DNA of 64,000 nucleotides from a bacterium (GCA_020057885.1 JAGVEX010000015.1:55862-119861), one strand, 5' to 3'; shown: positions 31,030 through 47,575, counted from the stretch's first letter. Notes: generated by a model not told the origin, from the letters alone. Program-made: numbers and translations.

Positions 31030-32160
31030 TTACCAAATAAACCCCTTTTTTTCAACTTTTTCAATAACTGCGCTACCAACTACTTCTAAATTATTTTTTA
31101 CCTTGCGGTAAAATACGGCTGACTGACCGGGGGTAATAGCCCGCTGTGGTTTAATAAACTTAACACGCAGTCCTGTACTAATTTTACTAACTTGAGCTTT
31201 AAAAACCGGATGGCGATAGCGGTGCCTAACCAAAAAAGTAGCCGGCAATTTAGGCGCCGTTTCTGCTACCCAATGAACTTTTTCAGCTATAAATTTGCTA
31301 GCTAGTAAATATTTCTGCTCAACTAATTTACCAACAATTAAAGTATTAGCTTTCCATTTCCGCCCAATAACATACCACGGCCCGCCAGCTAATCCCATAC
31401 CGTGCCTTTGGCCAATAGTATAAAAAGCTAAACCAATGTGTTTGCCCAAAACGCGGCCTTTGGTATCCACAATCGGTCCGGGCTTTTCCTGCAGTCTAGT
31501 ACGCAAAAAATCTTCTACTTTAACTTCGCCAATAAAACAAATGCCAACGCTATCGGGCTTGGCTGCCACTGGCAATTTAAGTTTCTTAGCCAATTGGCGT
31601 ACTTCAACTTTAGTCATTCCGCCTACTGGAAATAAAATATGTTTTAATTGATGCTGAGTTAAAGTGCAAAGAAAATAAGATTGATCTTTTTCTTTATCAA
31701 TACCATTTAATAAATGAAATTGCCATTTGCGATTTGCCATTTGCGATTTGCCAACTTTCGCGTAGTGTCCTGTGGCAATAAAATCCGCACCTGACTCCAG
31801 TGCTCTTTTTAAAAACAAAGGGATCTTTACAAATTGATTACAGCGAATATCCGGGTTAGGTGTACGACCACGCGCGTATTCCTTAAAAAAATAATCTATC
31901 ACATCGCGTCGATACTCTTTTTCAAAATCCCAAACCTCAAAAGGTATTTTTAATTTTTGCGCAACTTTTTTAGCATCATCACGCTCGCGAGTCCACTGGC
32001 ACTCCCCTGCTAAATTAAGATGCGTGCCTGTCCAATTTTTCATAAATACAGCATGCACATCGTAACCCTGCTTTTTTAAAAGGTATGCTGAAACAGCGGA
32101 ATCAACTCCACCGGATAAACCGATAAAAACTTTAACCTTACTCTGGCCCATAATTTTCAA
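31030..32160 (-). CDS. mnmA: tRNA-specific 2-thiouridylase
   Basis: The PP-loop SGGVDSAV is present, with MnmA-like central and C-terminal domains. Confidence 0.85.
   Translation of the reverse strand: MKIMGQSKVKVFIGLSGGVDSAVSAYLLKKQGYDVHAVFMKNWTGTHLNLAGECQWTRERDDAKKVAQKLKIPFEVWDFEKEYRRDVIDYFFKEYARGRTPNPDIRCNQFVKIPLFLKRALESGADFIATGHYAKVGKSQMANRKWQFHLLNGIDKEKDQSYFLCTLTQHQLKHILFPVGGMTKVEVRQLAKKLKLPVAAKPDSVGICFIGEVKVEDFLRTRLQEKPGPIVDTKGRVLGKHIGLAFYTIGQRHGMGLAGGPWYVIGRKWKANTLIVGKLVEQKYLLASKFIAEKVHWVAETAPKLPATFLVRHRYRHPVFKAQVSKISTGLRVKFIKPQRAITPGQSAVFYRKVKNNLEVVGSAVIEKVEKKGFIW
31716..31756. repeat. Tandem duplication of a 14-mer (GCCATTTGCGATTT, about 2.5 copies) inside mnmA
   Basis: Read directly. 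It encodes ...KSQMANRKWQ... in frame. Confidence 0.6.
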
Positions 32161-32211
32161 ACAAAAAAGTGAGTAAAATTACCCACCTTTTATTGTATCA
32201 TAAACGCGTGA

Positions 32212-33153
32212 TTATTCCGTAACTAACTCGGCTAGCACAACATATCGCTTAAGCGCCGTACCAATAGGCCAGGAGGTCTGCAAGGTCAACAAACGGCTCT
32301 TGTAGTCATTTTGGCCCAAATAATGCGTGTCAGAAGCGGCTACCACCTTACTCTCGGTGACTTTATAAGTGTAAACCTTGCCATTATGATCGCTTAACAA
32401 AATTTCAGCGCCAATTTTTATTTTAGGTAATACAGCAAACACAGTTCTATACTTCCCATTGCTCCACCAATAATCACTGGAATGCCCAAAAATATACACG
32501 TTGCCATACTCACCAGGATTTACTGTACCTGGATAATGAACCACGCCGTTTTTCAAACCTGCCTGAAAAGAATCCTCGTTGGCCTGCTCAACATAAATTA
32601 CCGGCACTAATAAATTAAGACTAGAAATAGAAAGTGTGTCAGCGGACAAGCTTTCTGCTGGTTTAGTTTGAGACTTAGGTGAAACTAAGGTGGCAATAAA
32701 ATTATTAGCGTTGCTTAAATTAGGTACCAAATATCGGTGATAATCAACTGGATTAACATACCAAAGCTCGCCAAGATTTTGCACTTGAATAAATAATTTA
32801 CCACTCTGTTTTTTAGCAAAGCTAAGATTAAGTTTTGTACGAGCAGTAGAAGATGAATAGTCAATCTCCAAGCCGCCCATAGGAATACGAGCTAGATCAG
32901 CATTAGTAATTCCAATCGGTTTTAAATTTGCCGGCAAACTTAAAACTTTCTTTATAGAAGAAGCGTTATTAGAACTCTGATTTTGTTGATTATCGCTTTG
33001 TGCTTGGGTAGCGGTTGGTTGCAATTGAGACACTATTATCGGCTCAGTTGAGTATCTCAAATTAGCCCAAATATACTGGGCGTTAAATGCCACTAATGCA
33101 ACCACACTCAAAATTAAGGCCCAACCAATTGTCCGCCAAGGATTTGTATTCAT
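32212..33153 (-). CDS. Sortase-family protein whose predicted catalytic Cys is replaced by Ser (TLQTSWP instead of TLxTC)
   Basis: An N-terminal TM and linker precede VHYPGTVNPGEYGNVYIFGHSS (His motif). The segment LLTLQTSWP...KRY aligns to the TLxTC...R signature. The Ser codon is TCC at 32272-32274. It is adjacent to an LPRTG protein. Confidence 0.6.
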   Translation of the reverse strand: MNTNPWRTIGWALILSVVALVAFNAQYIWANLRYSTEPIIVSQLQPTATQAQSDNQQNQSSNNASSIKKVLSLPANLKPIGITNADLARIPMGGLEIDYSSSTARTKLNLSFAKKQSGKLFIQVQNLGELWYVNPVDYHRYLVPNLSNANNFIATLVSPKSQTKPAESLSADTLSISSLNLLVPVIYVEQANEDSFQAGLKNGVVHYPGTVNPGEYGNVYIFGHSSDYWWSNGKYRTVFAVLPKIKIGAEILLSDHNGKVYTYKVTESKVVAASDTHYLGQNDYKSRLLTLQTSWPIGTALKRYVVLAELVTE

Positions 33154-33158
33154 ATTAA

Positions 33159-35885
33159 TTAATTGCTAACCCAATCTTTACCAACTTCCTTAAAACCAAT
33201 GACAAATAAAGCCAAAACCGGCAAAGCTAATAATATCGCCATAGGAAAACCTGTACGGGGAAGCTCTGTTGTAACACCAAGAACTTTTGGTACAGGTGGT
33301 GTTGTGATCGTCACACTCGCACTTTTTATTGTAGAGCAACCAACGCCACCGTTAAATTTAGCATAAACTGTTTTAATTCCATCACCTGATAATAATATCC
33401 AACTATGTGTTGGGGCTGGTGTTTCATAACTAGAGCCACTAAGATTAGCATTATTACTCAAAGCTATACCAGTTATGGTACTAGGATAAGTAAGATTTAA
33501 TGTTACGTTTGTTCCTGTAACAACAGGCCCTTCTACAATAGAAAAAACAAAATTGGCTGGATTAAAACCAGTACAAAAATCTCCACCACCTCCGCCGCCG
33601 CCTCCACCTCCCCCACCTTGGTCATCGTTAATCACTACACAAGTTTTTGTTTCACCAGCGGCAATAGTACCAGAACAATCGGAACCTAAACTCTTGCTAT
33701 AACCGAGTGATGAAACTTCATCAACACTATAACTGCCAGCATCCAAAGTAACAGTAGTACCTGCTTCGTCACCAGCGAATGAAGCGCTGGAGACGTTAGT
33801 ACCAGTTACGTTCATAGTAAAGTCGGCAACTGTTTTAGTTTTACCATTATCATTAATCACGTGTTTTTTTACAATTAAAGTTGCAGAAGATGGGGGTGTT
33901 GGTACATCACTATTAGTAATGGTACAAGTTTTACTCTCACCAACTAACAAAGCTGTTACGCCAGTACTGTCGCAATCGCCACTAAAAACAGCATTATAAC
34001 CCGTAGGAGTGGTGTCTTCACTCACAGTGTAAGTTCCGGGCAATAAAGTGTAAGAAACGCCTGTTTCAGAACCTACTGCTGGAGAACCAGCCACTTCCAA
34101 AATACCTTGTTTTAAATGTAAATTAAAATCAGTTGAAGTCTTTGTGCCACCGTGAGTATTAATAACCAACTTAATCACTTTAATAATACCGTGACTGGGC
34201 GGTGGTGGAGCATCGTCATCATTCGTTATAGTACAGGTCTTAGTTTCACCAATCGCAATAGTACCAGCACAATCAGTACCTAAGGTTTTAGTATATCCAT
34301 CAACTGTAGTTTCATCTACGCTGTAACTGCCAGCATCCAAAGTAACAGTAGTACCTGCTTCGTCACCTGCAAATGAAGCACTGGAGACGTTGGTACCAGT
34401 TACGTTCATGGTAAAATCGGCAGCTGTTTTAGTTTTACCATTATCATTAATAACGTATTTTTTTACAATAAGTTGTGGTTGAATATCATCATTAGTTATG
34501 GTACAAGTTTTAGTTTCACCAATCGTAATAGTGCCAGTACATTCATCTGAAGTACTAGAAGTATAATCAGCTACTGCTGTTTCAGAAACTAAGTATGTGC
34601 CAGCATCTAGGGTAACAGTTGTACCGGTATCCGAACCCGCAAAACTAGCAGATGAAACATTAGTACCCATGATATTCATAGTAAAATCCGCAGGAACTTT
34701 TATTCCACCATTGTCATTTATCACTTGTTTTTTCACAATAAGCTGTGGTGGAATATCATCGTTAGTTATAGTACAAGTTTTAGTTTCAGAAACTGCTAAA
34801 ATAACTGTGCCGTCTGTTGCGCAATCACTGGTAATAGAAGTCTTGTTATAACCAACTGGCGCAGTATCTTCACTCACGGTGTAAGTTCCTGGTAATAAAG
34901 TGTAGGTAGTGCCAGTGGTAGACCCAACTATTGGCGAACTAGCAACATCCACACCGGTATCCATAACATGAAGCATAAAGTCAGCGGCTGTTTTAGTACC
35001 GCCGTTATCATTTACTACCTGTTTTTTTATAATTAACGTACCAGTAGTTGGCGGTGGTGGAGCATCATCATCGTTTGTCACGGTACAAGTTTTGGTTTCA
35101 CCAACTGCGATAGTGCCAGCGCAGTCTGTACCTAGAGCTTTGGTGTATCCATCAACTGCAGTTTCATCTACGCTGTAACTGCCAGCATCCAAAGTAACAG
35201 TAGTACCTGCTTCGTCACCAGCGAATGAAGCGCTGGATACGTTGGTGCCTGTTACATTCATAGTAAAATCGGCAGCTGTTTTAGTTTTACCATTATCATT
35301 AATCACGTGTTTTTGAACAATTAAAGTAGCTTTACAATCTTTTGTCACACTAGTGTGGGTGGTATTACTAGAAACCCAAACAGTAAAATTCCCATATTCC
35401 AATGATGTAGCACGAGCTATATTTGTAATATCAAACGTATCACAAGAACTTGGTGTATTTACTGCGGCTGTCCAAACAATTTGACCAGCTTGACCTGGTG
35501 TTAAAGTATGTGCGTTCCAGGTTAAAGTACGGCTACCACTTTGGTATAAAGGAATTGCATAATAAGCAGTTGATATATTGCTACTAGTAGTAGAGTTAAC
35601 AAAAGTTAAATTAACATCTACTACGTCCTGCACTTTAATACCACCGCCCGTACAATTGGCAGTACCAGTATTTTTTATATCTATAGTGTAAGTTAAAGTA
35701 TCACCCGGATTAGCTGTGGCCGAACTCACCTGCTTAGTAAGAGTGAGGATACATTGCCCCGTGGCATTAACAGATGTCGGCGCTATAGCAATGTTGGTAG
35801 ATACCAACCCTGTTATTAACAAAGTGGCAAAAATACCAATTGTCCACCACCGCCAAGGTAACTTTTTGAATTTAAATATAAACAT
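33159..35885 (-). CDS. LPXTG (LPRTG) cell-wall-anchored surface protein with DUF11-like N-domain, several near-identical prealbumin-fold (Cna-B/SpaA-like) repeats and a Gly12 linker
   Basis: 908 aa with an N-terminal signal. The unit LIVKKHVINDNGKTKTAADFTMNVTGTNVSSASFAGDEAGTTVTLDAGSYSVDE...TKTCT.TNDD recurs. The C-terminus LPRTG, a hydrophobic stretch and KEVGKDW form a sortase sorting signal. Confidence 0.8.
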   Translation of the reverse strand: MFIFKFKKLPWRWWTIGIFATLLITGLVSTNIAIAPTSVNATGQCILTLTKQVSSATANPGDTLTYTIDIKNTGTANCTGGGIKVQDVVDVNLTFVNSTTSSNISTAYYAIPLYQSGSRTLTWNAHTLTPGQAGQIVWTAAVNTPSSCDTFDITNIARATSLEYGNFTVWVSSNTTHTSVTKDCKATLIVQKHVINDNGKTKTAADFTMNVTGTNVSSASFAGDEAGTTVTLDAGSYSVDETAVDGYTKALGTDCAGTIAVGETKTCTVTNDDDAPPPPTTGTLIIKKQVVNDNGGTKTAADFMLHVMDTGVDVASSPIVGSTTGTTYTLLPGTYTVSEDTAPVGYNKTSITSDCATDGTVILAVSETKTCTITNDDIPPQLIVKKQVINDNGGIKVPADFTMNIMGTNVSSASFAGSDTGTTVTLDAGTYLVSETAVADYTSSTSDECTGTITIGETKTCTITNDDIQPQLIVKKYVINDNGKTKTAADFTMNVTGTNVSSASFAGDEAGTTVTLDAGSYSVDETTVDGYTKTLGTDCAGTIAIGETKTCTITNDDDAPPPPSHGIIKVIKLVINTHGGTKTSTDFNLHLKQGILEVAGSPAVGSETGVSYTLLPGTYTVSEDTTPTGYNAVFSGDCDSTGVTALLVGESKTCTITNSDVPTPPSSATLIVKKHVINDNGKTKTVADFTMNVTGTNVSSASFAGDEAGTTVTLDAGSYSVDEVSSLGYSKSLGSDCSGTIAAGETKTCVVINDDQGGGGGGGGGGGGDFCTGFNPANFVFSIVEGPVVTGTNVTLNLTYPSTITGIALSNNANLSGSSYETPAPTHSWILLSGDGIKTVYAKFNGGVGCSTIKSASVTITTPPVPKVLGVTTELPRTGFPMAILLALPVLALFVIGFKEVGKDWVSN
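33700..35330. repeat. Three near-identical intragenic nucleotide repeats of about 280 nt (about 33700-33880, 34200-34480, 35040-35330) in the LPXTG protein gene
   Basis: The three copies are nearly identical at the nucleotide level. Confidence 0.7.
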
Positions 35886-36004
35886 AAAATGTGATTTAAA
35901 TTAAAAATGAGATCCTATTAATAATTAAGATCCCTACATTCTTAACATATATAGTAAAAATAATCAATAATTTATTTTCCACAACAACTATACTCACGAA
36001 ACGA

Positions 36005-36898
36005 CTATTTATTTAAAGCGGCTCTGGTGATTGGTCCTACAAAACCAGTTGCGGTAATACCATTTTTACGCTGATAAGCTTGTACGGCTCTAAAAATAGA
36101 CCAACTAAAATAGGTTGATATTTTCCCTTTATAAAAGCCTAAGATCGTTAAACGTTTTTGCAATTCTTTTACATCATTATCCCACATTCCTAGCCACATA
36201 TTATGTGTGAAAGAAAAATTAACCACACCAGAAACTATACCTGAAATTTTAGGTGGTTTATTATTACCGTTATTATTGTTGCTATTGTTGTTATTACTGC
36301 CGTTATTATTATTATTGTTATTTGAATTATCATTATTTGTTGTACCACCGCCGCCACCGCTTTGTGTTGTAATTAAACCAAGCAAGGGGGTACTGGCAGT
36401 AAACAATGTTCCTTCGCCTGAAACGCCGACTTGAATATCAAATCCTACGCTGCCATTTTGATAATTATTATTTGCTGAATTATTAAATGTTACTGCAAAA
36501 TTATATTGCGTTTGTACGCCGCTTGCTATTTCCGAAAGATTTGTTACGTCATTGTCATACAAACTTCCTAAGGTGCCTATGTAAAGAGTTGCAGTATTTT
36601 GAGTGATAACAACATTCAACTGCGAAGCTAAATTATCATTATCAATAAACGAATTTAACTTTACACCAATAAGTTTTGGGGTTGAGGTATTGTTTGTTAC
36701 CTTAACATAACGAGTTACTGTATTGCCGGGCAAAAAATTTACTTCGCTAAACAGTGGTTTATATTCAAATTCAATTAAAATATTGGGTGCAACAGGTGTA
36801 GCTAAAGCTGAATGTGGCCAAACAAAAAATAATGAAAAAGCGCCAAGTATAACTAAGCTTAATTTTATAATATTAAATTTCTCAAAAAAACTATTCAT
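36005..36898 (-). CDS. Secreted protein with N-terminal beta-rich domain, poly-Asn/Gly/Ser low-complexity linker and C-terminal peptidoglycan-binding domain (PG_binding_1-like)
   Basis: Classical signal peptide (ALA|TP). The linker is NNNNNNNGSNNNNSNNNN. The C-terminus VKELQKRLTILGFYKGKISTYFSWSIFRAVQAYQRKNGITATGFVGPITRAAL matches the PG-binding repeat. Confidence 0.65.
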   Translation of the reverse strand: MNSFFEKFNIIKLSLVILGAFSLFFVWPHSALATPVAPNILIEFEYKPLFSEVNFLPGNTVTRYVKVTNNTSTPKLIGVKLNSFIDNDNLASQLNVVITQNTATLYIGTLGSLYDNDVTNLSEIASGVQTQYNFAVTFNNSANNNYQNGSVGFDIQVGVSGEGTLFTASTPLLGLITTQSGGGGGTTNNDNSNNNNNNNGSNNNNSNNNNGNNKPPKISGIVSGVVNFSFTHNMWLGMWDNDVKELQKRLTILGFYKGKISTYFSWSIFRAVQAYQRKNGITATGFVGPITRAALNK

Positions 36899-36906
36899 AA
36901 ATATTA

Positions 36907-37974
36907 TTAATTAATTGGCGCGGTGCCATCATTGGGTGTTAAAGGGACCAAGGTTGGTTCTGGTAAAATTGGGTCCTCTACTGGTGCTAAGGGATCAATT
37001 GGAGGAATTAATTCATCAGTTGGTGTAATTAGAGAAGTCGTTTCAATTACTGGATCGCTCGGAATTATAGGCTCGTTAACTAATACATCGGTGGATAAAA
37101 TTTCAATTACCGCATCTGGGTCAAGACTTTCTTGGGTGCCTAATACTTTTGGATTAATTACAGTGCCATCATCAATAATACTTGAACTGCGTGGTAGGCA
37201 CCAAGTACCAGCCGTAACAGTACCGCTTATTTGCGCGGTATCGGTAAAGTAGCCAACGCCATAACTCGGGGCTTCCAACTGCCAAGCTTTAAACAAAATA
37301 TTAAAATTACAAGCCTTGCCACGCAAACTCTCATTATTACTGGTAAGCTTTAAAGCAAAAGTCCAATCTTCTGGTGTGCTAAACTCAAAAGCCCCACTGC
37401 TAAATCCTACCAAAGAACCTGTATATACGGTGTTACCTTTTAGCATAGCTGTTAGTTCTAAAGCTACACATAAGTCTCCACTTACAACATCAGACTCAGT
37501 TGAATATTTAAAATTAATCGCGCCGGTTTGTGTTAATAATACTGGCAAGGCAGTGGTTTCATTGGGCTTAATAGCCAAATTACTGCCTGCTGGCTGATAC
37601 TCCCCTGCCACGGCATTCAAACTTAATGAAATGGTAGATAAATTATTATCTATTGACTCTTCGGTATCGCTAAAATAAGAACTAGTGCCAATTATTCCTG
37701 TTAATTCAGTTGCTAATAAGGCGATTATGGCCACTAGCGTGCCACCCTTCAAAACAAACCTTCTTAATAATATTCTATTTGCTTTACGGCGTTGTAATTT
37801 GTGTAAAATTATTTTGTAACCTCTATACACCCTGCGCTCAGACCGATACATAGCCAAAACCAATTTGCGCCCGCGTTTAAAATACAAAGCCACCGCTTTG
37901 TGTGCACGTCGAACATAGCGTTGTAACACTCTGCTTATTTTTCGCACTCGGCGTTGTAATTTTAGCTGACGCAT
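36907..37974 (-). CDS. SipW-cognate-signal family protein with an unusually long Arg/Lys-rich N-terminal region and a Pro-rich C-terminal tail
   Basis: A highly basic N-terminus of more than 35 aa precedes a TM, then GTSSYFSDTEESIDNN (SipW-cognate-like motif). The C-terminus is PIIPSDPVIETT...PILPEPTLVPLTPNDGTAPIN. Confidence 0.55.
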   Translation of the reverse strand: MRQLKLQRRVRKISRVLQRYVRRAHKAVALYFKRGRKLVLAMYRSERRVYRGYKIILHKLQRRKANRILLRRFVLKGGTLVAIIALLATELTGIIGTSSYFSDTEESIDNNLSTISLSLNAVAGEYQPAGSNLAIKPNETTALPVLLTQTGAINFKYSTESDVVSGDLCVALELTAMLKGNTVYTGSLVGFSSGAFEFSTPEDWTFALKLTSNNESLRGKACNFNILFKAWQLEAPSYGVGYFTDTAQISGTVTAGTWCLPRSSSIIDDGTVINPKVLGTQESLDPDAVIEILSTDVLVNEPIIPSDPVIETTSLITPTDELIPPIDPLAPVEDPILPEPTLVPLTPNDGTAPIN

Positions 37975-37983
37975 AAATTAAGC

Positions 37984-38559
37984 TTAAACTATCTTAGTTT
38001 CTGCTTTCTTTTTATTTCTTAGCTTAGCTATTTCCTGCCACACTTTTTTGCCTTCGTCGTACATAAGAATAAGTGCTGGCAAAATAACTAATACTGCAAA
38101 ACCAATCGGCTTTTTAGCCGCCGCCACACCATAACCAACGTAAGGCATACTGAATAGTGTTTTGCCAATTACATCGCGTCCGCGCACCTCACGCATATCT
38201 TGGTTATTATTGGCATCACCTTTGGTTAGATAAACTGGGCGACCAGAATCATTTTTTACTTCCACAATACGATGCGTAGTGGGCGGTTTAACTTTAGAAA
38301 ATGGTCCAAAAGTAATAATATCACCTACTTGATAACTACTAGCTGGTCTAACTACCACCACGCTGCCAGTTTTAATCGCCGGCTCCATGGAGCCCGATTG
38401 CACCACAAAAGCTTTAATTCCACCCGGTATGGGCAAAGCGGAAGAAATTAAGACCAACACAATAAACAGCGCTACGGCCAAAAACGCGTAGGAAAGTATT
38501 TTATAAATTGTATCAATAACTTTTTTCATAAATAAACTATTTTTTATTATGGCGCGCAA
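37984..38559 (-). CDS. sipW: Signal peptidase I, SipW/ER/archaeal type (S26B-like)
   Basis: An N-terminal TM is followed by VVQSGSMEPAIKTGSVVVV (catalytic Ser box) and TTHRIVEV (His box), then a C-terminal TM. At about 180-191 aa the size fits. Confidence 0.75.
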   Translation of the reverse strand: MRAIIKNSLFMKKVIDTIYKILSYAFLAVALFIVLVLISSALPIPGGIKAFVVQSGSMEPAIKTGSVVVVRPASSYQVGDIITFGPFSKVKPPTTHRIVEVKNDSGRPVYLTKGDANNNQDMREVRGRDVIGKTLFSMPYVGYGVAAAKKPIGFAVLVILPALILMYDEGKKVWQEIAKLRNKKKAETKIV

Positions 38560-41267
38560 TATTGCACGTGTTCTGCTATATTAACAGCTTCCAACCGATT
38601 TTTCATTGCTTCAAACTGAGTATAAGTAGCACTGGGATTATTCAGCAACGCATCAGCCTGCGCGGCTAATTGCGCTAAAGTAATACTTTCACCCGGCACT
38701 TGTCCTCCTCCTGCCCCAAAATAAGCAATACTAAATTTAAGCGCTAATAATTGCCCTCTTACTCTATTGCGCATGGTATCAGAATAACGGACAAATACTT
38801 CCTGAGCTTGAAATGCCGTACTAATTATTTCACTGCCTAAAATTTGCGGTAAAATCCATTGGCTAGGATGATTTATCCAATAACCTTTTGATTTAACTTG
38901 TAAATCTACACATTGCAACGGATCGTCATTAGTTACGGTGCAAGTTTTGGTTTCGCCTTGAACAATAATACCGCCGCAGCCCGCACCAATTGTTTTGGTG
39001 TAACCAAAGCTATCAACCTCGTCAACAATATAAGTGCCCGGCTCAACAGTAACTGCTGTACCATCTTCGGAACCAGGTAAATTAAGCACCATTCCGCTAT
39101 TCATACTTATTTTCATGGTGAAATCTCGGGCTTGTTTAGTGCCGCCATTATCATTAATAACGTGTTTTTTTACAAGCAAAATTGTATCACAGGTAGAACG
39201 CGTGCCTGTGGTATGTACTGTGTTACTCTCCACCCACTGCCAATTTAATTCATTAGCAGAAATTCGGGCAGTATTAGGAATATCAAATGGACCACAAGGC
39301 GGCTGCTTAATATTAGCGCTCCAGCTTACCCAACCCGATTGTCCCGGAACAACTGTGTGCGCGTTCCAGCGTAAAATACTGCCGTCAAATACCGAACCAT
39401 AATAACCCGCGTCAACATTACTGGAATGGGTTTCAGTAACATAAGTCAAAAGCGGATTAACCGTATCTTCTATCTTTACTCCCCCGCCCGTACAATTCAG
39501 CTTGCCAATATTCTTAAAATTAATAGTATAAGTTAACTGCTCACCCGGATTAGCAGTAGTTTTATTAACCTGTTTAGTAATTTGCAAAATACACTTAGGC
39601 GGCACGTAAACATCATTGTTTGTCACTATACAAGTTTTAGTTTCTCCGACCGCGATAGTACCAGCACAATCGGCGCCTAGAGTTTTATTATAATCAGCTA
39701 CAAAATTTTCATCCACGCTATAAGCTCCCGCGTCAAGCGTTACGTTAGTACCAGTTTCGGAGCCAGTAAACGAAGGCATTGAAACATTTGTACCAGTAAC
39801 ATTCATAGTGAAATCAGCTGCCAACTTAATACCGCCATCATCGTTAATTACGTGCTTTACTACTATCAAATGAGCGTGCTTATCCTCTGGCGGTTGGCAA
39901 ATAAAATTCGGATTATTGCGCGCTTGTTCAACTTGGAATGATAAATCAACTTTCAGCGAATCGGTTTGCGATTCGTTACCCATAGTAGAACCATTACAAT
40001 TAAGACTGTTAGCACTAATATTAGCGGTCAGAGTGCCGGCGCACCACGCTAAACCAACATAACTAGTTGTATCGCCAGCTAAAGCTCCAGCAACGGGCGT
40101 ATACAAGGCATAATATTTATTATCAAATGCCTCTTGAGCTGTTACAGGATTAGATAACAATGGTTCTTCGCCAGGCTCCCAAATATTATCGCCATCATCG
40201 CGCCATATAAATACTGTAACGTGTTCGCCGAGTTCGCCATTACCCGGGCCGTCGGTTGAATCTACCAATGCCTCTGGTTTGGTTAAACCATTATCGTCAT
40301 CTCTTAAATTGGTGGCCAAAAGACAGGCGTAAGCATCGTTTGTATCCACGTGCAAGCTTATAGTGTTCTCACCTTTATCGTTTGGCTTAACGCTATTTAA
40401 ATCAAAAAATTTAGTAGTAGGACCCAGATCAGTTAACTCCCAAGTGCTGGCGCAACTCTGCCCGACTAATGAATTCGAACGGCAATCTAAATTAGAAAGT
40501 TTTACTTCATCTAAAAATACTCCGTAACTTTCGTCCAGTCCGCCGCCCACAAACTCCACACGCGTAGTGGTGGATGTAGTAATTACTTCGTATTCATAAT
40601 ATTCCCAAGCTGTATTGCTAATAGCCGAACCATTGGCCGCCAAATCTGCCACTTGTGTACCGCCCAAATTAACTTTGAGTTTATTATTATCCGCTCCTGT
40701 GCCAGGCCGCGGCGAAAACTTAAAGCTTAAGCGATATTTATTGCCAACTACAGTATTCACATCCTGATAAATTTTTACCAAAGCCGGCTCGCCGTTTAAG
40801 CTACCATTTGGCCCATCCCAATCTGCATCAAGCTCGGCATATTGATTACCACTGCTTGGCAACCAACCATTCACGCCACGGTGAAACTCCACTTGAGCAA
40901 TCAGCGGCCTAATAGCCGACCCAAATGTTGTTTGGGTTCCTACCCATTCTACATTCCAACCAAGCGAGAGGGTACCCGAGGGGTAAATATCCCATTTTTT
41001 ATCCGAAGTTACTGTTGGATTCTCAAAATCACCATTTTGTAACAAATTAGTGCTGGTTGGTACGCAAGATTGTACCCACACGCCATCTTTACAAACTATG
41101 CCATTGTAATGCCCTTGGCTATCTACTTTAAGATTCAAATCACCCGCCACAAACGTATTGCCATTTGAAGATTCAGTATCACTAACAAAAGCACCAGTGC
41201 CACCGGTGATGATTATCACCCCCGCACCTATTGCTAATATTGCTAATAATAATTTCTTGGCTGACAT
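38547..41267 (-). CDS. Large secreted protein with SipW-cognate (TasA/camelysin-like) signal and N-module, followed by a DUF11-like domain and prealbumin-fold (Cna-B-like) repeats
   Basis: The N-terminus MSAKKLLLAILAIGAGVIIITGGTGAFVSDTESSNGNTFVAGDLNLKVDS matches the cog_SipW_sig-like pattern (GT.A.FSDTE.S..N.F.AG.L.L). Repeats such as LVKKHVINDNGGTKQARDFTM are shared with the LPXTG protein. Confidence 0.75.
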   Translation of the reverse strand: MSAKKLLLAILAIGAGVIIITGGTGAFVSDTESSNGNTFVAGDLNLKVDSQGHYNGIVCKDGVWVQSCVPTSTNLLQNGDFENPTVTSDKKWDIYPSGTLSLGWNVEWVGTQTTFGSAIRPLIAQVEFHRGVNGWLPSSGNQYAELDADWDGPNGSLNGEPALVKIYQDVNTVVGNKYRLSFKFSPRPGTGADNNKLKVNLGGTQVADLAANGSAISNTAWEYYEYEVITTSTTTRVEFVGGGLDESYGVFLDEVKLSNLDCRSNSLVGQSCASTWELTDLGPTTKFFDLNSVKPNDKGENTISLHVDTNDAYACLLATNLRDDDNGLTKPEALVDSTDGPGNGELGEHVTVFIWRDDGDNIWEPGEEPLLSNPVTAQEAFDNKYYALYTPVAGALAGDTTSYVGLAWCAGTLTANISANSLNCNGSTMGNESQTDSLKVDLSFQVEQARNNPNFICQPPEDKHAHLIVVKHVINDDGGIKLAADFTMNVTGTNVSMPSFTGSETGTNVTLDAGAYSVDENFVADYNKTLGADCAGTIAVGETKTCIVTNNDVYVPPKCILQITKQVNKTTANPGEQLTYTINFKNIGKLNCTGGGVKIEDTVNPLLTYVTETHSSNVDAGYYGSVFDGSILRWNAHTVVPGQSGWVSWSANIKQPPCGPFDIPNTARISANELNWQWVESNTVHTTGTRSTCDTILLVKKHVINDNGGTKQARDFTMKISMNSGMVLNLPGSEDGTAVTVEPGTYIVDEVDSFGYTKTIGAGCGGIIVQGETKTCTVTNDDPLQCVDLQVKSKGYWINHPSQWILPQILGSEIISTAFQAQEVFVRYSDTMRNRVRGQLLALKFSIAYFGAGGGQVPGESITLAQLAAQADALLNNPSATYTQFEAMKNRLEAVNIAEHVQYCAP

Positions 41268-41301
41268 TTGATAAATTGATTACTTAATATTATCTAAATT
41301 A

Positions 41302-42678
41302 TTAATTGAATGTTTGATTAGTATTCACGGCGTTGTATGTACTTGTGATAGGGCTAGACCATGTGAAATCAGAATATTCGTTTCCTGTTCCTTGAAGCTG
41401 TAAAGAATAACCTATAGGGGTAGTAGATGATTCAGTAACACCAATGTCAACCGACATCATACCAGCAGCCGGACCGTTTGCGGCTGTAAAACTACCACCA
41501 TAACTTAAAAATTTAACGACTGTATTATCCGACTTTACGAGTGCAAGACCATCAGGTGAACCATTCTGGACGCTAACCTTAGCAAACCACAATGTACCAA
41601 AACCTCCTTGTTGACTAGGAATTGTACTGGAAAGATTTATAGTGTCGTAACTTGCTTGATTGCTACCATTATACAAAACGACTTTCCAACCAATTAAATC
41701 CGTACCTGCAACGCCTGCAATTTCCACACCTTCATTGGCATCTGTCCCGGTATTGTCATAATGAATCTCATTAATCCATACCTTAGCTACCTCGCAAGCA
41801 TCCCCAATGCCGTTACTATCTGAATCTAGTTGGTCAGGATTAGAAATATTCGAACAATTGTCACAAACGTCCCCGACACCGTCCGCATCTGTATCTATTT
41901 GATCAGGATTATAAGTTGCAGGACAATTATCTCGCGCGTCAGCTATACCATCAACATCACCATCCACTGACAAAGGAATACATCGGAAATTGGTATTATT
42001 TCTGGCCTGCACTACATTAAAAGAAATATCACCAATCAGACTATCGGTTTGCACTTTATTTCCGATTCCAGCAGGTAAATTCCAAGAGACGCCAAGATAT
42101 CCAATTGTTCCGCTCGGCAATGCTCCCGTGCCTGTGGTTGAATCGTAAACCGGTAATACGCCGTTTATTGGATAACCAGTAGCCAATGTTTGCTCAGTTC
42201 CATTTTGGATATTGTCGCCAGCAACTCCTCCCCCTGTACCATCGTCTCTCCAAACAGTCCAAACCATAGTATTTTGTAATTCACCTTCGCCGGCTCCGCC
42301 AGTCGTATCAACCACACTTTCTGGTTCGGTTAATCCATTATCATCGCTAGTCAAATTGACAACTTCCGCGCAAACCCAGGCATCGTTGTTTATCACATGC
42401 AAACTAATAGTGTTCTCGCCGTAGTCGCCTGGCTTAACATCAGAAAAGTTAAAAAACTTATCACTAGTTGGAACCAAATCTTTCAACTTCCATAAACCAC
42501 ATTCGCTTGAGGCAACACCATTGTAACTGCACTGACTATCAACCTTAAGGTCAATCGCTCCGGCAGTAAAGGTATTACCAGTGGAAGTTTCAGTATCGCT
42601 AAACAAAGCGCTGGTACCAGCCACCACCACAGCCCCAACGGCTGCAAGAATGCTTAAACTTAAAATAATTTTCTTCAT
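41302..42678 (-). CDS. Secreted protein with SipW-cognate signal and TasA-like N-module, thrombospondin type-3-like Ca-binding repeats and a C-terminal lamin-tail domain (LTD)
   Basis: The N-terminus is MKKIILSLSILAAVGAVVVAGTSALFSDTETSTGNTFTAGAIDLKVDS. TSP3-like repeats follow (DGDVDGIADARDNCPATYNPDQIDTDADGVGDVCDNCSNISNPDQLDSDSNGIGDAC). The LTD-like segment is VWINEIHYDNTGTDANEGVEIAGVAGTDLIGWKVVLYNG. Confidence 0.75.
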   Translation of the reverse strand: MKKIILSLSILAAVGAVVVAGTSALFSDTETSTGNTFTAGAIDLKVDSQCSYNGVASSECGLWKLKDLVPTSDKFFNFSDVKPGDYGENTISLHVINNDAWVCAEVVNLTSDDNGLTEPESVVDTTGGAGEGELQNTMVWTVWRDDGTGGGVAGDNIQNGTEQTLATGYPINGVLPVYDSTTGTGALPSGTIGYLGVSWNLPAGIGNKVQTDSLIGDISFNVVQARNNTNFRCIPLSVDGDVDGIADARDNCPATYNPDQIDTDADGVGDVCDNCSNISNPDQLDSDSNGIGDACEVAKVWINEIHYDNTGTDANEGVEIAGVAGTDLIGWKVVLYNGSNQASYDTINLSSTIPSQQGGFGTLWFAKVSVQNGSPDGLALVKSDNTVVKFLSYGGSFTAANGPAAGMMSVDIGVTESSTTPIGYSLQLQGTGNEYSDFTWSSPITSTYNAVNTNQTFN

Positions 42679-42875
42679 ATAAATTAGAGTTAAACTAAAT
42701 TATTTTGGGCTATTGGCTACTAGCTATATGCTAATAGCTATTTAACGCCTCGGCTCTCTCCGCAAATTTTTTCGATTTACGAAGAGGAGCAGGCTTTAAA
42801 CGCCTAACGCGGTTATTGTTGTTTTTGTAACCAAATAAATGGTTAGAGCAACTAATTGCTTAGATATAACGATAA

Positions 42876-44258
42876 TTATGGTAACGGATTGTCGTCGTTC
42901 GTGATAGTACAAATAATGGCTTCGCCTTCATCAAGCGTAGCTGTACCACCGAGCACGGCTGGACACTTAATATTTCCAATAATAGATACGAAGGTGTAGC
43001 CCACGCGCCCTACCTCATTAATAGTGTGCGGAATGTTTGAATTTACCGCCACCGAGGTATTGTTTTGAACAAGGTTGCCGTCAATATTAAGGCCGAACAT
43101 AGTTGGTCCAGCGGTACCACCATTGTCATTAATCACGTTTTTTATAAGCGTGATATTACCAGGCAAGTCATTATTTACTATAGTGCAAGATTTGTTATCA
43201 CCTGCATTAAGAGTAACTTGACCAAACTGATCACAATCGGGTCCACTGAACGATGCTACATATCCCATAATACCTGTCTCGGTCACCACATAGTTACCTG
43301 GTGGTACCTGAACTGGTACGCCAGATGTAACTGGAAATGGTGTCATGTAATTATCAACAAATAATTGATAATCACCAACGACATTATTACCGCCATTATC
43401 ATTTACAATTTCTTTAGTAACTGTAATAGTTGCGAGTCGAGGTTTACCGTCGCAAGTGTAATTTGGATTGTGTCGAGCTTGTACAGCGCGGAAAGCAATA
43501 TCCATCGTCACGCCATCAGTTTGGCTTTCGTTGCCAAGCTGAGTACCGTTACAAGTAAACCCAGAACCCTGCGCTCCCAAAGGACTATCATAGTCGCCTG
43601 GTGTAACAGGATTAAGAGTCATTGTGCCATAGCACCAACCTTTGGCAATATAGTAAGTTTCGCCACCTAGCGCCGGGCCGGGTACACCGGTCCAAACGTT
43701 TGTATTGGCATCAGCCAAAACAGCTGAAAACTTTTTATCCTCACCAAATAAACTTAGGATGGTTTGCTCGCCGTCAGAAAGCAAGGTTTCGCCTTGTTCC
43801 AAAACATTGTCGCCATCATCCACCCACCAAACCATTTTAACCAAGTTGCCAAGTTCACCATCCCACGTATCATTCACGTCTTCTGGTGCGTCAACTATAA
43901 GCTCTGGTTCGGTAGATGAAATATCGTTGTTAGTTGTAAGCGACATATCCAAACACAAGTATGCGTCGTTGTTGTTAACGTGGAGAGAAATAGTATCCTC
44001 ACCCTCGTCATCTGGCTTTAGATCGGTAAAGTTGATAAGTAAGAGCCCGTTGCCTAAATCCGAAGGGCCGAAAGTAGTTATATCCGAAATCGCTCCGTTA
44101 TAGTAACTCTCGTTATCTACTTTAAGATCAATCGCGCCAGCCACAAAAACGTTACCGCTAGCTGTTTCGGTGTCGCTTAAGAAAGCGCTAGTCGCTCCAA
44201 AACCGACAACCACAGCTAAGGCTCCAATAACCGCTAAACTGAAAATTATTCTTTTCAT
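42876..44258 (-). CDS. Secreted protein with SipW-cognate signal and TasA-like N-module plus C-terminal prealbumin-fold repeats
   Basis: The N-terminus is MKRIIFSLAVIGALAVVVGFGATSAFLSDTETASGNVFVAGAIDLKVDN. C-terminal repeats include ITVTKEIVNDNGGNNVVGDYQLF...PGNYVVTETG..GY and ITLIKNVINDNGG. Confidence 0.75.
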   Translation of the reverse strand: MKRIIFSLAVIGALAVVVGFGATSAFLSDTETASGNVFVAGAIDLKVDNESYYNGAISDITTFGPSDLGNGLLLINFTDLKPDDEGEDTISLHVNNNDAYLCLDMSLTTNNDISSTEPELIVDAPEDVNDTWDGELGNLVKMVWWVDDGDNVLEQGETLLSDGEQTILSLFGEDKKFSAVLADANTNVWTGVPGPALGGETYYIAKGWCYGTMTLNPVTPGDYDSPLGAQGSGFTCNGTQLGNESQTDGVTMDIAFRAVQARHNPNYTCDGKPRLATITVTKEIVNDNGGNNVVGDYQLFVDNYMTPFPVTSGVPVQVPPGNYVVTETGIMGYVASFSGPDCDQFGQVTLNAGDNKSCTIVNNDLPGNITLIKNVINDNGGTAGPTMFGLNIDGNLVQNNTSVAVNSNIPHTINEVGRVGYTFVSIIGNIKCPAVLGGTATLDEGEAIICTITNDDNPLP

Positions 44259-44335
44259 AGCAGTGCATCTTTCCTCTTACCCTAATGCTGAAATCTAAAT
44301 AATCTCAAAATTAAGTTTGAGGAAAGTGGAGTTAG

Positions 44336-45184
44336 TTAGCGCCTGGTAGGAAGTACGCAAGTAAAGTTAGGGTTGTTTCTGGCTTGTTCAACACGGAAAG
44401 CTATGTTAGCTGTCATGGTGTCGGTCTGAGCAATGTTACCCAATCCATTACCATCGCAAGTTATGATTGCATTAGCAGTTGGTGTCGCGGCGGTTACATT
44501 CATTGTACCTGCGCACCAAGCCAAACCAATGTATCTTGTTGTATTACCTGCCAAAGGACCAGTGATGGAATTAGCTAAGGTGTAAGACTTGCCACCAAGT
44601 ACGTCGCTGGCTGGACCATAAAGGTTAGAGAATAACTGTTGCTCGCCTGCTTCCCAAATATTGTCGCCATCATCTGCCCAAGCAGTGAAGTAAATGCCTT
44701 GTGCGAGGTCACCAGTTGTGGTTCCATCGGAAGCATTTAGTACTGAGCCATCTACCAAGTCTTCAGGAGTTGTAATGCCATTGTCGTCGTTTGCAGTAAT
44801 ATCTACATCAACACAGGCATAAGCGTCGTTGCTGTCAACGTGAAGCGAGATTGTATTCTCACCAGAGTCGCCAGGCTTAACATCCAAAAAATTAAAAAAC
44901 TTTTGTGCACCAAGATCAGCTAGCTCCCAAGAACCATCGCAAGGTGTTCCGGCCTTTGGATAAGCGGCATCACCAGACCAAATATATGGATATTGACCAT
45001 CTGTAGTAGCAACACAAACATTACCATTGTAGTGTTGTTCACTATCAACAGTTAAATCGATAGCGCCAGCAGTAAAGGTGTTACCAGTGGATGTTTCAGT
45101 ATCACTGAAAAAAGCAGTGGTGCCAGCAACTACCACAGCCCCAACGGCTGCGAGAATTGCCAAGCTTAAAAGAATTTTCTTCAT
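44336..45184 (-). CDS. Secreted TasA/camelysin-like protein with SipW-cognate signal (shortest paralog, candidate major subunit)
   Basis: The N-terminus is MKKILLSLAILAAVGAVVVAGTTAFFSDTETSTGNTFTAGAIDLTVDS. It shares the core module (KFFNF.DVKPGD.GENTISLHV, WCAG, QTD...F..EQARNNPNF.C) with the other paralogs. Confidence 0.75.
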   Translation of the reverse strand: MKKILLSLAILAAVGAVVVAGTTAFFSDTETSTGNTFTAGAIDLTVDSEQHYNGNVCVATTDGQYPYIWSGDAAYPKAGTPCDGSWELADLGAQKFFNFLDVKPGDSGENTISLHVDSNDAYACVDVDITANDDNGITTPEDLVDGSVLNASDGTTTGDLAQGIYFTAWADDGDNIWEAGEQQLFSNLYGPASDVLGGKSYTLANSITGPLAGNTTRYIGLAWCAGTMNVTAATPTANAIITCDGNGLGNIAQTDTMTANIAFRVEQARNNPNFTCVLPTRR

Positions 45185-46264: not shown

Positions 46265-47575
46265 TTAAATTATAGTCAGTAATAGCGCCAACCCCACCAC
46301 CGCCAGCGAATGGCTTACAACTGAAACGTGCTGCACGCGGATTTTGATGAAGATATTAAGCAACAGCGCGGCTACCAAAAATACTACAAAATAAAAATAA
46401 AATTGGGTAACCGAATCGTCAAGATTACGTACTGTAAAAAAACCTAAAATTTTAGCAAACTTATTCGTGCCTTCGTTAAATACATAAAACTGTTGCGTGG
46501 AAACTTTAGGCGCTAACCACACTAACGATTTAGTATCAACTGAATCATCGCTTCCTATAACCATGGCTGATAACAATTCCCCGCCTTTACTAAATTGATC
46601 AGGATTAAACGCTATACTCCCCTGCCACACATCGTTATTTTGTTTAATTAAAACTACCGCTTCCGCAACCAACCGAACCACTACTGCTTTGGCATTTGTA
46701 ACTTTAATTTGTACTTGATAAGAATTATTATCTTGTAATACTTTCAAGCTTGATTCGTCAATAATGGGTTTAAGTACAACCGGTACTGGTTTTGCCACCG
46801 CACTAACTGGTGTTTTGGGAACAATAACAGCCGACTCCACCTCACCCGTAGTACTACCTGCTGTAACCGGCTCTAGCACTGGTTTGGGTGCTGGTGTATT
46901 GGTATTAGCATTAATAACAGGGGCAACTACCTCTTTAGTAACTGGTTTAATGGTTGTTGCTAAAGCTGTTTTAATTGGTGAGGCAAAATGCTCTACCACT
47001 ATAGTGGTATCAAAACCCTCAAATGTACCCATGGCCACGCCTACGCCTATCTCGGTATATTTGGGCATAACAATATTGGCGCGGTGCGTAGGGCTAGCGA
47101 GCCAGCCTGCTTGCAAATTCTCGGCGGTGGTAAAATGTACTGCTAAATTTTCACCAGCATAAGTATATTTGTAACCAGCTTTAGCAAACCAATCCCAGGG
47201 CGTGGCGCCTGCGGGACTAGTGTGCGCGAAATACTGATTCAAAAGCATATCCTCGGCTTTAGCTTGCGCGGAGGCGGTTAGCTTGTCATTCAACTTTAAA
47301 TCACCCAAACTTAAATTTTCTCTGGTTTGATTTGTTAGCTCAACAATATTCTGTGGCGTAATAGCGCTAGAAAATAAACTGGAAGAAGGTAGTGCAATAG
47401 GCACCACTACTACCAAAACTTTTAACAAAATTAAAATAACGCTATAGCCAATAAGCACATTGTGCTTTAAAGCGTGCGGGTGATAATTGTTGCCAGCGTG
47501 CGGAATAAAATGATCCCACAGGTGGCGGCCTGCTTTTTTGGTGTGCCTTGATATATGCTGAATGGCTTTTGACAT
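46265..47575 (-). CDS. Membrane-anchored CAP/SCP/PR-1 (YkwD-like) domain protein with Pro/Val/Thr-rich linker and C-terminal TM
   Basis: The CAP domain reads AQAKAEDMLLNQYFAHTSP...GENLA...PTHRANIVMPKYTEIGVGV. Confidence 0.7.
   Translation of the reverse strand: MSKAIQHISRHTKKAGRHLWDHFIPHAGNNYHPHALKHNVLIGYSVILILLKVLVVVVPIALPSSSLFSSAITPQNIVELTNQTRENLSLGDLKLNDKLTASAQAKAEDMLLNQYFAHTSPAGATPWDWFAKAGYKYTYAGENLAVHFTTAENLQAGWLASPTHRANIVMPKYTEIGVGVAMGTFEGFDTTIVVEHFASPIKTALATTIKPVTKEVVAPVINANTNTPAPKPVLEPVTAGSTTGEVESAVIVPKTPVSAVAKPVPVVLKPIIDESSLKVLQDNNSYQVQIKVTNAKAVVVRLVAEAVVLIKQNNDVWQGSIAFNPDQFSKGGELLSAMVIGSDDSVDTKSLVWLAPKVSTQQFYVFNEGTNKFAKILGFFTVRNLDDSVTQFYFYFVVFLVAALLLNIFIKIRVQHVSVVSHSLAVVGLALLLTII

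Follow-up and report, generated by a model that had tools for sequence, protein, structure and literature searches.

A stretch of bacterial DNA of 64,000 nucleotides (GCA_020057885.1, JAGVEX010000015.1:55862-119861; hereafter the window, meaning the whole stretch at its full length), probably from a groundwater-type, ultra-small member of the Patescibacteria, harbours a gene (positions 32212–33153, minus strand) coding for a sortase of 313 amino acids (aa), in which a serine (Ser294) occupies the position of the catalytic cysteine. Ser294 is neither an error nor the mark of a decaying gene, but a fixed trait of a clade of Patescibacteria (hereafter the Ser clade). Judged from the sequences, the protein is probably an active serine-nucleophile sortase, i.e. 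a transpeptidase, with a single dedicated substrate, the LPRTG adhesin encoded directly upstream. We give an even chance to the more specific proposal that the Ser clade would represent the first natural serine-nucleophile sortases, their His-Cys-Arg site having been rebuilt to His-Ser-Arg (with Gln two residues before the serine and Asp three residues after the histidine) and an oxyester acyl-enzyme anchoring one LPRTG adhesin to the cell wall. According to reviews, all sortases use His-Cys-Arg (PMC8225981), and the Ser clade contradicts this universal statement on a heavily studied enzyme family. No report of natural serine sortases or of LPRTG signals in Candidate Phyla Radiation (CPR) bacteria was found in the full-text literature searched, the coverage of which was partial, so that an earlier mention is possible; the term LPRTG led to papers on sortagging and hydrogels. 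We know of no Ser/Cys swap in the sortase / L,D-transpeptidase fold, nor did the literature searched describe one.

Sortase fold and class assignment

From N- to C-terminus, the product of the open reading frame (ORF) consists of a membrane helix, an additional folded domain in the middle and the sortase domain. The sortase-like layout recognized in the initial annotation was borne out by the family profile PF04203 (Sortase, MEROPS C60), which matches aa 174–311 (Pfam envelope; 32221–32634, minus strand) over its entire length (profile positions 1–125 of 125) with 76 bits against a cut-off of 26.6. The membrane anchor (approximately aa 8–30, IGWALILSVVALVAFNAQYIWAN; 33064–33132, minus strand) is evident from the sequence and from helices at aa 5–23 and 25–36 of the AlphaFold2 (AF2) model. 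This model was based on 109 homologs and has a mean predicted local distance difference test (pLDDT) score of 84.8, with values above 90 across the sortase domain. Prediction confidence is high for the N-terminal helix (aa 5–36) and for the strands of the sortase domain, among which strands 217–222, 287–295 and 302–310 bear the His, Ser and Arg motifs, respectively. Without exception, the top 50 PDB structures matched by Foldseek are sortases, belonging to classes D, C, A and E (E-values down to 1.5e-10), the best target-normalised template modelling score being 0.77. The protein is accordingly predicted to adopt the eight-stranded beta-barrel fold of sortases.

All class-specific NCBIfam models scored below their cut-offs: SrtD (55.5 vs 140), class D (50 vs 165), class E (38.9 vs 160), class C (33.7 vs 160), class F (28.6 vs 166) and GN (30.9 vs 158). 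The same holds true for TIGR01076 (sortase_fam; 36 vs 39.35). The protein is thus a member of the Pfam sortase superfamily, yet stands outside classes A–F and lacks one defining feature of the family, the cysteine of the TLxTC motif.

Active-site residues

When the protein is aligned by phmmer to sortases of solved structure (4d70, class D; 8t28, class C), the query segment lltlqtSwpigtalkRy stands opposite lltlvtCtplgintHR. Specifically, LLTLQTSWPIGTALKRY pairs with LLTLVTCTPLGINTHR of the Actinomyces class C enzyme 8t28, and the alignment to the class D enzyme 4d70 of Clostridium perfringens is equivalent. These alignments place Ser294 (TCC; 32272–32274; TLQT-S-WP vs TLxT-C) in the column of the catalytic Cys and Arg303 (CGA; 32245–32247; strand β8) in that of the catalytic Arg. 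The equivalent of the catalytic His is His224 (CAT; 32482–32484) within the FGHSSD motif. The three codons, all on the minus strand, were verified, and the serine that the initial annotation had located at the nucleophile position is therefore real. Both His224 and Arg303 are invariant in the 217 Ser-clade and 35 Cys-clade sequences described below. In the AF2 model, His224 is located just after strand 217–222, Ser294 closes strand 287–295, and Arg303 lies within strand 302–310, a predicted placement that corresponds to the canonical β4/β7/β8 layout. Two further positions of interest are Gln292 (CAG; 32278–32280, minus strand), two residues before Ser294 and covarying perfectly with it, and Asp227 (GAT; 32473–32475, minus strand), three residues after His224 and enriched in the Ser clade.

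It had also been considered that the true TLxTC cysteine might reside elsewhere in the protein. Since the 313-aa protein contains no Cys residue at all, there is no such alternative motif; likewise, 169 of the 217 Ser-clade domains are free of Cys. The catalytic Cys of the TLxTC motif is therefore absent, its column in the alignments to the solved structures being occupied by Ser294.

Conservation of Ser294

Two sets of homologs were compiled, i.e. the 120 best homologs among 5.8 billion proteins, and the best 150 of 4420 matches (E <= 1e-3) obtained when 1.84 billion representatives of 50 % identity clusters were searched exhaustively with HMMER. The combined alignment comprises 252 domains, 217 with Ser and 35 with Cys at position 294. 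The motif TLQTS[WY]P.GTA..R was found in all 120 best homologs except for one frameshifted tail, and another 100 representatives (50 % identity) also have Ser. Among the best 150, the Ser form continues down to about 124 bits, below which the Cys relatives (TLMTC.P.GT..R) start. Conservation among relatives, considered informative in the initial annotation, is thus complete (217 of 217 clade members), and the sequences originate from many independent samples and assemblers. The same protein, identical over its 313 aa, is encoded on a separate Logan-assembled contig (run SRR6489855). The relatives had been expected to belong to the CPR, in agreement with the labels of the Ser-clade loci (Doudnabacteria, Veblenbacteria, Kerfeldbacteria, Parcubacteria group and Patescibacteria group). 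In a species-level scan (one genome per GTDB species; motifs YIFGHSSD and QTS[YW]P[IVL]GTA), 200 stretches were retrieved, 171 of which were confirmed, corresponding to at least 171 species representatives with these motifs.

In 83 genes inspected at the DNA level, Ser294 is encoded by TCT, TCG, TCC or TCA (79 genes) and by AGC or AGT (4 genes), amounting to six codons in all. A switch between TCN and AGY codons takes two substitutions, and the nearest relatives of the AGY-coded genes all use TCN. The occurrence of both codon families with this distribution points to repeated two-step switches and hence to long-term selection for serine itself.

Pairwise identity inside the Ser group drops to 27 % (some pairs 27–42 %). 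Invariant or nearly so across this range are G203, G214, G217, F222, G223, H224, S225, S226, D227, Q292, S294, G298 and R303. There is no sign of relaxed constraint, since every position that does not vary among the Cys relatives shows a conservation of at least 93 % in the Ser group. The His, the Arg, Thr293 (position -1), GHSS and P.GT are kept at least as strongly in the Ser clade as in the Cys sister clade. With regard to the choice left by the initial annotation between a Ser-nucleophile variant and an inactivated pseudo-sortase, this pattern favours the active enzyme, as do the clade-specific co-changes and the adjacent, strictly conserved LPRTG partner gene described below. Recoding or a non-standard genetic code was rejected on account of the long intact ORFs under table 11 and the ordinary TCC codon.

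The domain architecture varies within the clade. The small extra domain of the window protein (aa ~70–165; 32659–32946, minus strand; pLDDT ~80–95), located between membrane helix and catalytic domain, includes the motif GKLFIQVQNLGELWYVNPVDYHRYLV and has no match in Pfam. An insert at this position is absent from most Ser-clade members, and the relatives P0007–P0014 have bacterial TSP3 repeats (PF18884) there. Some members are fusions with the sortase domain at the C-terminus of a far larger protein, namely P0120 (517 aa, locus L033), which has a DUF11 domain, P0139 (673 aa) and P0149 (919 aa).

Separation from cysteine-type sortases of Patescibacteria

In a neighbour-joining tree of the 252 domains, with columns 292 and 294 masked, the Ser sequences form one clade (217 Ser/0 Cys) and the Cys relatives the other (35 Cys/0 Ser). 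This clean split suggests one single Cys-to-Ser switch. At residue 292, every Ser-clade sequence (100 %) and no Cys-clade sequence (0 %) has Gln, the latter having Met, Ile or Val instead, and residue 227 is Asp in 97 % of the Ser clade and 23 % of the Cys clade. Positions 220, 222, 243 and 300 hold Tyr, Phe, Pro and Ala in the Ser clade and differ in the Cys clade. Based on strand periodicity (292/294 on β7 and 220/222/224 on β4, each on the same side), the clade-specific changes should line the active-site face. We propose that Gln292, Asp227, Tyr220, Phe222 and Ala300 adapt the active site to serine as the nucleophile.

The Cys-type sister sortases (TLMTC.P.GT..R, GHSS[YND]) belong to the same phylum, display up to 52 % identity in the domain and have GHSS, HYPGT, P.GT and the Arg in common with the Ser clade. 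They differ in having kept the Cys, in Met/Ile/Val rather than Gln at position -2, in mostly missing Asp227, and in their gene neighbourhood: in 80 Cys-sister loci, no clear case of an adjoining LPxTG gene was found (one dubious non-LPxTG match was flagged). A metagenome scan built on 10 of the 35 Cys relatives yielded more than 535 confirmed stretches, demonstrating the abundance of this sister clade. It is probably part of the sortase family fam000526, which Méheust et al. (2019) found in over half of the CPR genomes, making no comment on the nucleophile (PMC6744442).

Many Cys sister sortases (L111, L128, L130, L134, L135, L141, L144, L150, L153, L157, L158 and L160) possess a C-terminal extension of about 40 residues past the catalytic domain, the last residues of which are a conserved E(A/M/V/Q)LPI; none of these genes adjoins one for an LPxTG protein. 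The Cys-clade loci L105, L106 and L125 encode, on the opposite strand and within 8 kb, an additional Cys sortase that is more distant (LILYTCWP; scoring about 50 bits against the Ser-clade profile), from which it follows that several sortases per genome occur in these bacteria.

The LPRTG partner protein

The gene for the presumed cognate substrate (33159–35885, minus strand) ends with its stop codon 5 nt ahead of the sortase ATG. It codes for a protein of 908 aa with a signal peptide, DUF11, six SpaA_2 prealbumin-like repeats, a poly-Gly linker, a C-terminal domain and a sorting signal. Pfam matches comprise SpaA_2 (1.3e-45, 6 stretches), DUF11 and SpaA, and the gene contains diverged DNA repeats of about 270–290 nt each. 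The C-terminus reads PKVLGVTTE-LPRTG-FPMAILLALPVLALFVIGF-KEVGKDWVSN, with the LPRTG motif at aa 875–879 (33249–33263, minus strand), followed by a membrane helix (aa 880–898) and a short charged tail (aa 899–908; helix and tail together 33162–33248, minus strand). The initial annotation had regarded this protein as a textbook sortase substrate, which is correct with respect to LPRTG, hydrophobic helix and KEVGKDW but overstated with respect to the tail, which is less basic than in textbook cases. Thus, a membrane-anchored enzyme is accompanied by a substrate with an LPxTG-like motif, helix and charged tail, as is characteristic of the sortase family. Combining family profile and motif scan, exactly one sortase and one LPxTG-type C-terminal signal were detected in the 64-kb window.

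A class C-type pilin-polymerising system was considered and rejected: the 908-aa protein contains no YPK pilin motif, and SpaA/SpaA_2 are generic stalk domains. Twelve Gly in a row, starting at aa 757 (33590–33630, minus strand), represent a possible slippage-prone linker. A promoter and terminator scan of 31800–38800 gave counts near those of shuffled controls and reported no terminator in the 5-nt junction between substrate and sortase gene.

Pairing of sortase and LPRTG genes across related loci

The neighbourhoods (±10 kb) of 80 species-level Ser-clade loci contain 81 sortase genes, all of the Ser type; no Cys sortase was found within this range. For at least 60 of the 80 loci, the product of the same-strand gene directly upstream terminates in VLGxxxLP(R/K)TG followed by a membrane helix and then a basic tail (49 loci by a strict detector, extended to at least 60 by manual inspection of the rest). 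Of 63 partner tails, 60 carry LPRTG and 3 LPKTG. Downstream of the motif come a hydrophobic helix and 2–4 basic residues, the part beyond the Gly having a median length of 26 residues. Almost all partner proteins (L001–L080; window 33264–33290) share P-x-V-L-G-(A/E)-x-T-(E/D) right before LPRTG, which hints that recognition may extend upstream of the pentapeptide.

The recurrence of this adjacency in at least 60 of 80 related loci is far beyond chance. Viewed against the lack of a clear case of such a neighbour in 80 loci of the Cys sister clade, it marks the Ser clade as a presumably dedicated enzyme–substrate pair with an unusually strict signal.

Some loci deviate from the common arrangement. 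The window and the subgroup L001–L003 share an unusual G(K/R)(E/D)W tail in place of an Arg/Lys-rich one. At some loci without an adjoining substrate gene, the Ser sortase gene directly follows ORFs with ftsW- and murG-like C-termini (L015, L043, L048 and L072) or a uvrA-like ORF (L027, L035 and L046), these assignments having been read from the (C-terminal) sequences, not from annotations. The ftsW-murG-like neighbours of the former four loci would fit a link to lipid II. At the Veblenbacteria-labelled locus L005 (9821–11377), the sortase tail and the tail of the upstream substrate are out of frame; the substrate reads VLGVTT and loses its frame where LPRTG is expected, reflecting either poor assembly or a decaying pair.

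Proposed mechanism and alternative explanations

The 908-aa adhesin-like precursor would be exported via its N-terminal signal peptide and retained in the membrane by the C-terminal helix, allowing the LPRTG motif to be bound in the groove of the sortase. Ser294, with His224 as general base, would then attack the Thr-Gly bond, while Arg303 may position the substrate and stabilise the oxyanion. The resulting acyl-O-Ser intermediate (an oxyester) would replace the usual thioester and be resolved by an amine, presumably on lipid II or on peptidoglycan (precursor), whereby the DUF11/SpaA_2 stalk protein becomes joined to the wall. Catalysis, oxyester intermediate, acceptor and the roles of Gln292 and Asp227 are all inferred from sequence. 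Acyl-O-Ser transpeptidation chemistry should be feasible by analogy to the serine DD-transpeptidases (penicillin-binding proteins), the Ser acyl-enzymes of which are resolved by peptidoglycan amines.

Several observations weigh against an active serine transpeptidase. The main counter-argument is that the C184S exchange in SrtA of Staphylococcus aureus "decreased dramatically" its activity, nearly abolishing it, so that a serine alone does not make a good sortase (PMC4827206). Obvious candidates for making the serine competent are Gln292, Asp227 and the strand changes. Furthermore, a Cys sortase elsewhere in the same genome, beyond the surveyed ±10 kb, could perform the real anchoring. About a quarter of the Ser-clade loci have no adjacent LPRTG gene, and the tail of the 908-aa substrate is weakly basic, two Lys together with Glu and Asp resulting in a net charge of about zero.

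The arguments for catalysis apply equally to an active serine endopeptidase devoid of transpeptidase activity, which would hydrolyse LPRTG between Thr and Gly to free the adhesin or a matrix/fibre protein and would thus serve as a dedicated maturation or shedding protease. Oxyesters are less prone than thioesters to aminolysis relative to hydrolysis, and the gene cluster described below includes a SipW-type peptidase and TasA-type secreted proteins, the latter being known to form non-covalently attached matrices. Motif, membrane helix, charged tail and membrane-anchored enzyme are, however, kept exactly as in wall-anchoring systems, penicillin-binding proteins demonstrate that amines can resolve Ser acyl-enzymes, and some loci adjoin the ORFs read as ftsW-murG. 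We therefore regard a purely hydrolytic enzyme as unlikely.

It also appears improbable that the protein is a dead pseudo-sortase that still binds the LPRTG signal of the adjoining gene product, be it for retention, as a chaperone or to regulate surface display, with any covalent chemistry left to a Cys sortase elsewhere. The near-inactivity of SrtA C184S and the His-Cys-Arg site stated for all sortases would agree with such a role, as would the abundance of Cys-type sortases in Patescibacteria, considering that the neighbourhood survey spans ±10 kb. Pseudoenzymes, however, usually relax the rest of the catalytic set, whereas little or no variation is seen at His224, Arg303, Thr293, GHSS and P.GT, and Ser is retained in 217 of 217 members over two codon families. 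A role restricted to binding leaves unexplained why position 294 is only ever Ser (never Ala, Gly or Thr) and why Gln292 covaries with it, and a Cys sortase was not encountered within ±10 kb in the 80 loci.

Finally, a sequencing or assembly error from TGC to TCC, as envisaged in the initial annotation, or a very recent inactivating mutation in an ordinary Cys sortase can practically be dismissed: TCC is indeed a single transversion away from TGC, but Ser is present in all 217 clade members with six different codons, in the identical protein of the separate Logan assembly and, by motif, in at least 171 GTDB species representatives.

Comparison with known sortases and nucleophile exchanges

Class D sortases (C. 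perfringens SrtD 4d70; NF033746 / NF058671) provide the best match in sequence and fold, those of classes C and E being looser. Features in common with class D are the N-terminal membrane anchor, the eight-stranded barrel, the His after β4, the Arg in β8 and an LPxTG-type substrate. Many sortases of classes B–F are encoded beside a dedicated substrate, as is the window sortase. Unlike in class D, Ser replaces the TLxTC Cys, scores are far under the class cut-offs (55 vs 140; 50 vs 165), the motifs are FGHSSD and TLQTS[WY]P.GTA..R, the sorting signal adheres strictly to LP(R/K)TG with a conserved VLG upstream, and (in the window protein) an extra middle domain is present.

The C184S mutant of S. 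aureus SrtA carries formally the same nucleophile substitution as the Ser clade. The mutant, however, is nearly inactive and represents a single change in a Cys-adapted site, whereas the Ser clade possesses additional fixed changes kept across deep divergence. One fold operating with either Ser or Cys is known from the PA clan (Ser in chymotrypsin, Cys in picornain 3C). Papain-like families with a Ser nucleophile also exist (PMC10318531). Together with Ser acyl-enzyme transpeptidation by penicillin-binding proteins, these swaps provide precedent from folds unrelated to that of sortases.

Should the Ser clade indeed act as serine transpeptidases, the sortase fold would support a second nucleophile, as do the chymotrypsin and papain folds, and the covarying Gln292, Asp227, Tyr220 and Phe222 would represent a natural experiment on how to make Ser work where C184S fails. 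A transpeptidase of this kind would be thiol-independent, insensitive to oxidation and thiol inhibitors, and strictly LPRTG-specific, i.e. a protein-ligation enzyme reading LPRTG with no need for a free thiol. Thiol-directed sortase inhibitors as well as Cys-based annotation rules would miss it. The means by which many uncultured ultra-small bacteria display their probable host-attachment proteins would furthermore be identified.

Genomic context

The order of genes for LPRTG protein, sortase, MnmA (mnmA) and alanyl-tRNA synthetase (alaS) is common to the window and the Veblenbacteria-labelled loci, and the alanyl-tRNA synthetase of the window shares 69 % identity with the L005 enzyme. The window therefore probably originates from this part of the Patescibacteria.

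Upstream of the LPRTG protein gene, all on the minus strand, are genes for a secreted protein with a peptidoglycan-binding domain (36005–36898; Pfam PG_binding_1, 57.5 bits), for a SipW/archaeal-type signal peptidase I (37984–38559; TIGR02228, 115 bits vs 51.85) and for a run of surface proteins (38547–45184) with N-terminal Peptidase_M73 matches in Pfam, SpaA_2, DUF11 and TIGR04088. TasA/camelysin-type, SipW-dependent signal peptides were predicted for 38547–41267, 41302–42678 and 44336–45184 (TIGR04088, 26.5 vs 19; PF12389 N-terminal matches, 22.5–28.4 vs 22.5); the protein encoded at 42876–44258 has a SpaA_2 match only. A surface protein of 906 aa has DUF11, SpaA_2 and DNA repeats in common with the LPRTG protein. 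Signal peptidase and signal peptides together constitute a SipW-type system, even though the Bacillus SipW equivalog model remained below its cut-off (122 vs 190). The region of about 32.2–45.2 kb is thus a surface-structure gene cluster with two export/anchoring routes, suggesting a combined surface-fibre/adhesin cluster. While the window shares the SipW/archaeal-type peptidase and the TasA/camelysin-type signal peptides with SipW-TasA secretion of Bacillus, this route is separate from the Ser sortase, the link consisting in co-location only, observed in the window and, among the 80 related loci, at four (L049, L074, L038 and L036), where SipW-type peptidase and TasA-type proteins are likewise encoded upstream of the Ser sortase.

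Long Asn/Gly-rich low-complexity stretches in the peptidoglycan-binding protein represent possible slippage-prone linkers. An odd internal TIGR04088 match (TasA/camelysin-type) is located in the ORF at 36907–37974 (minus strand). An Rfam scan of the window yielded no match. Upstream of the cluster, a protein with a CAP (cysteine-rich secretory protein) domain is encoded at 46265–47575 (minus strand); at 22 of the 80 loci, homologs of it are encoded no more than 10 kb away from the Ser sortase.

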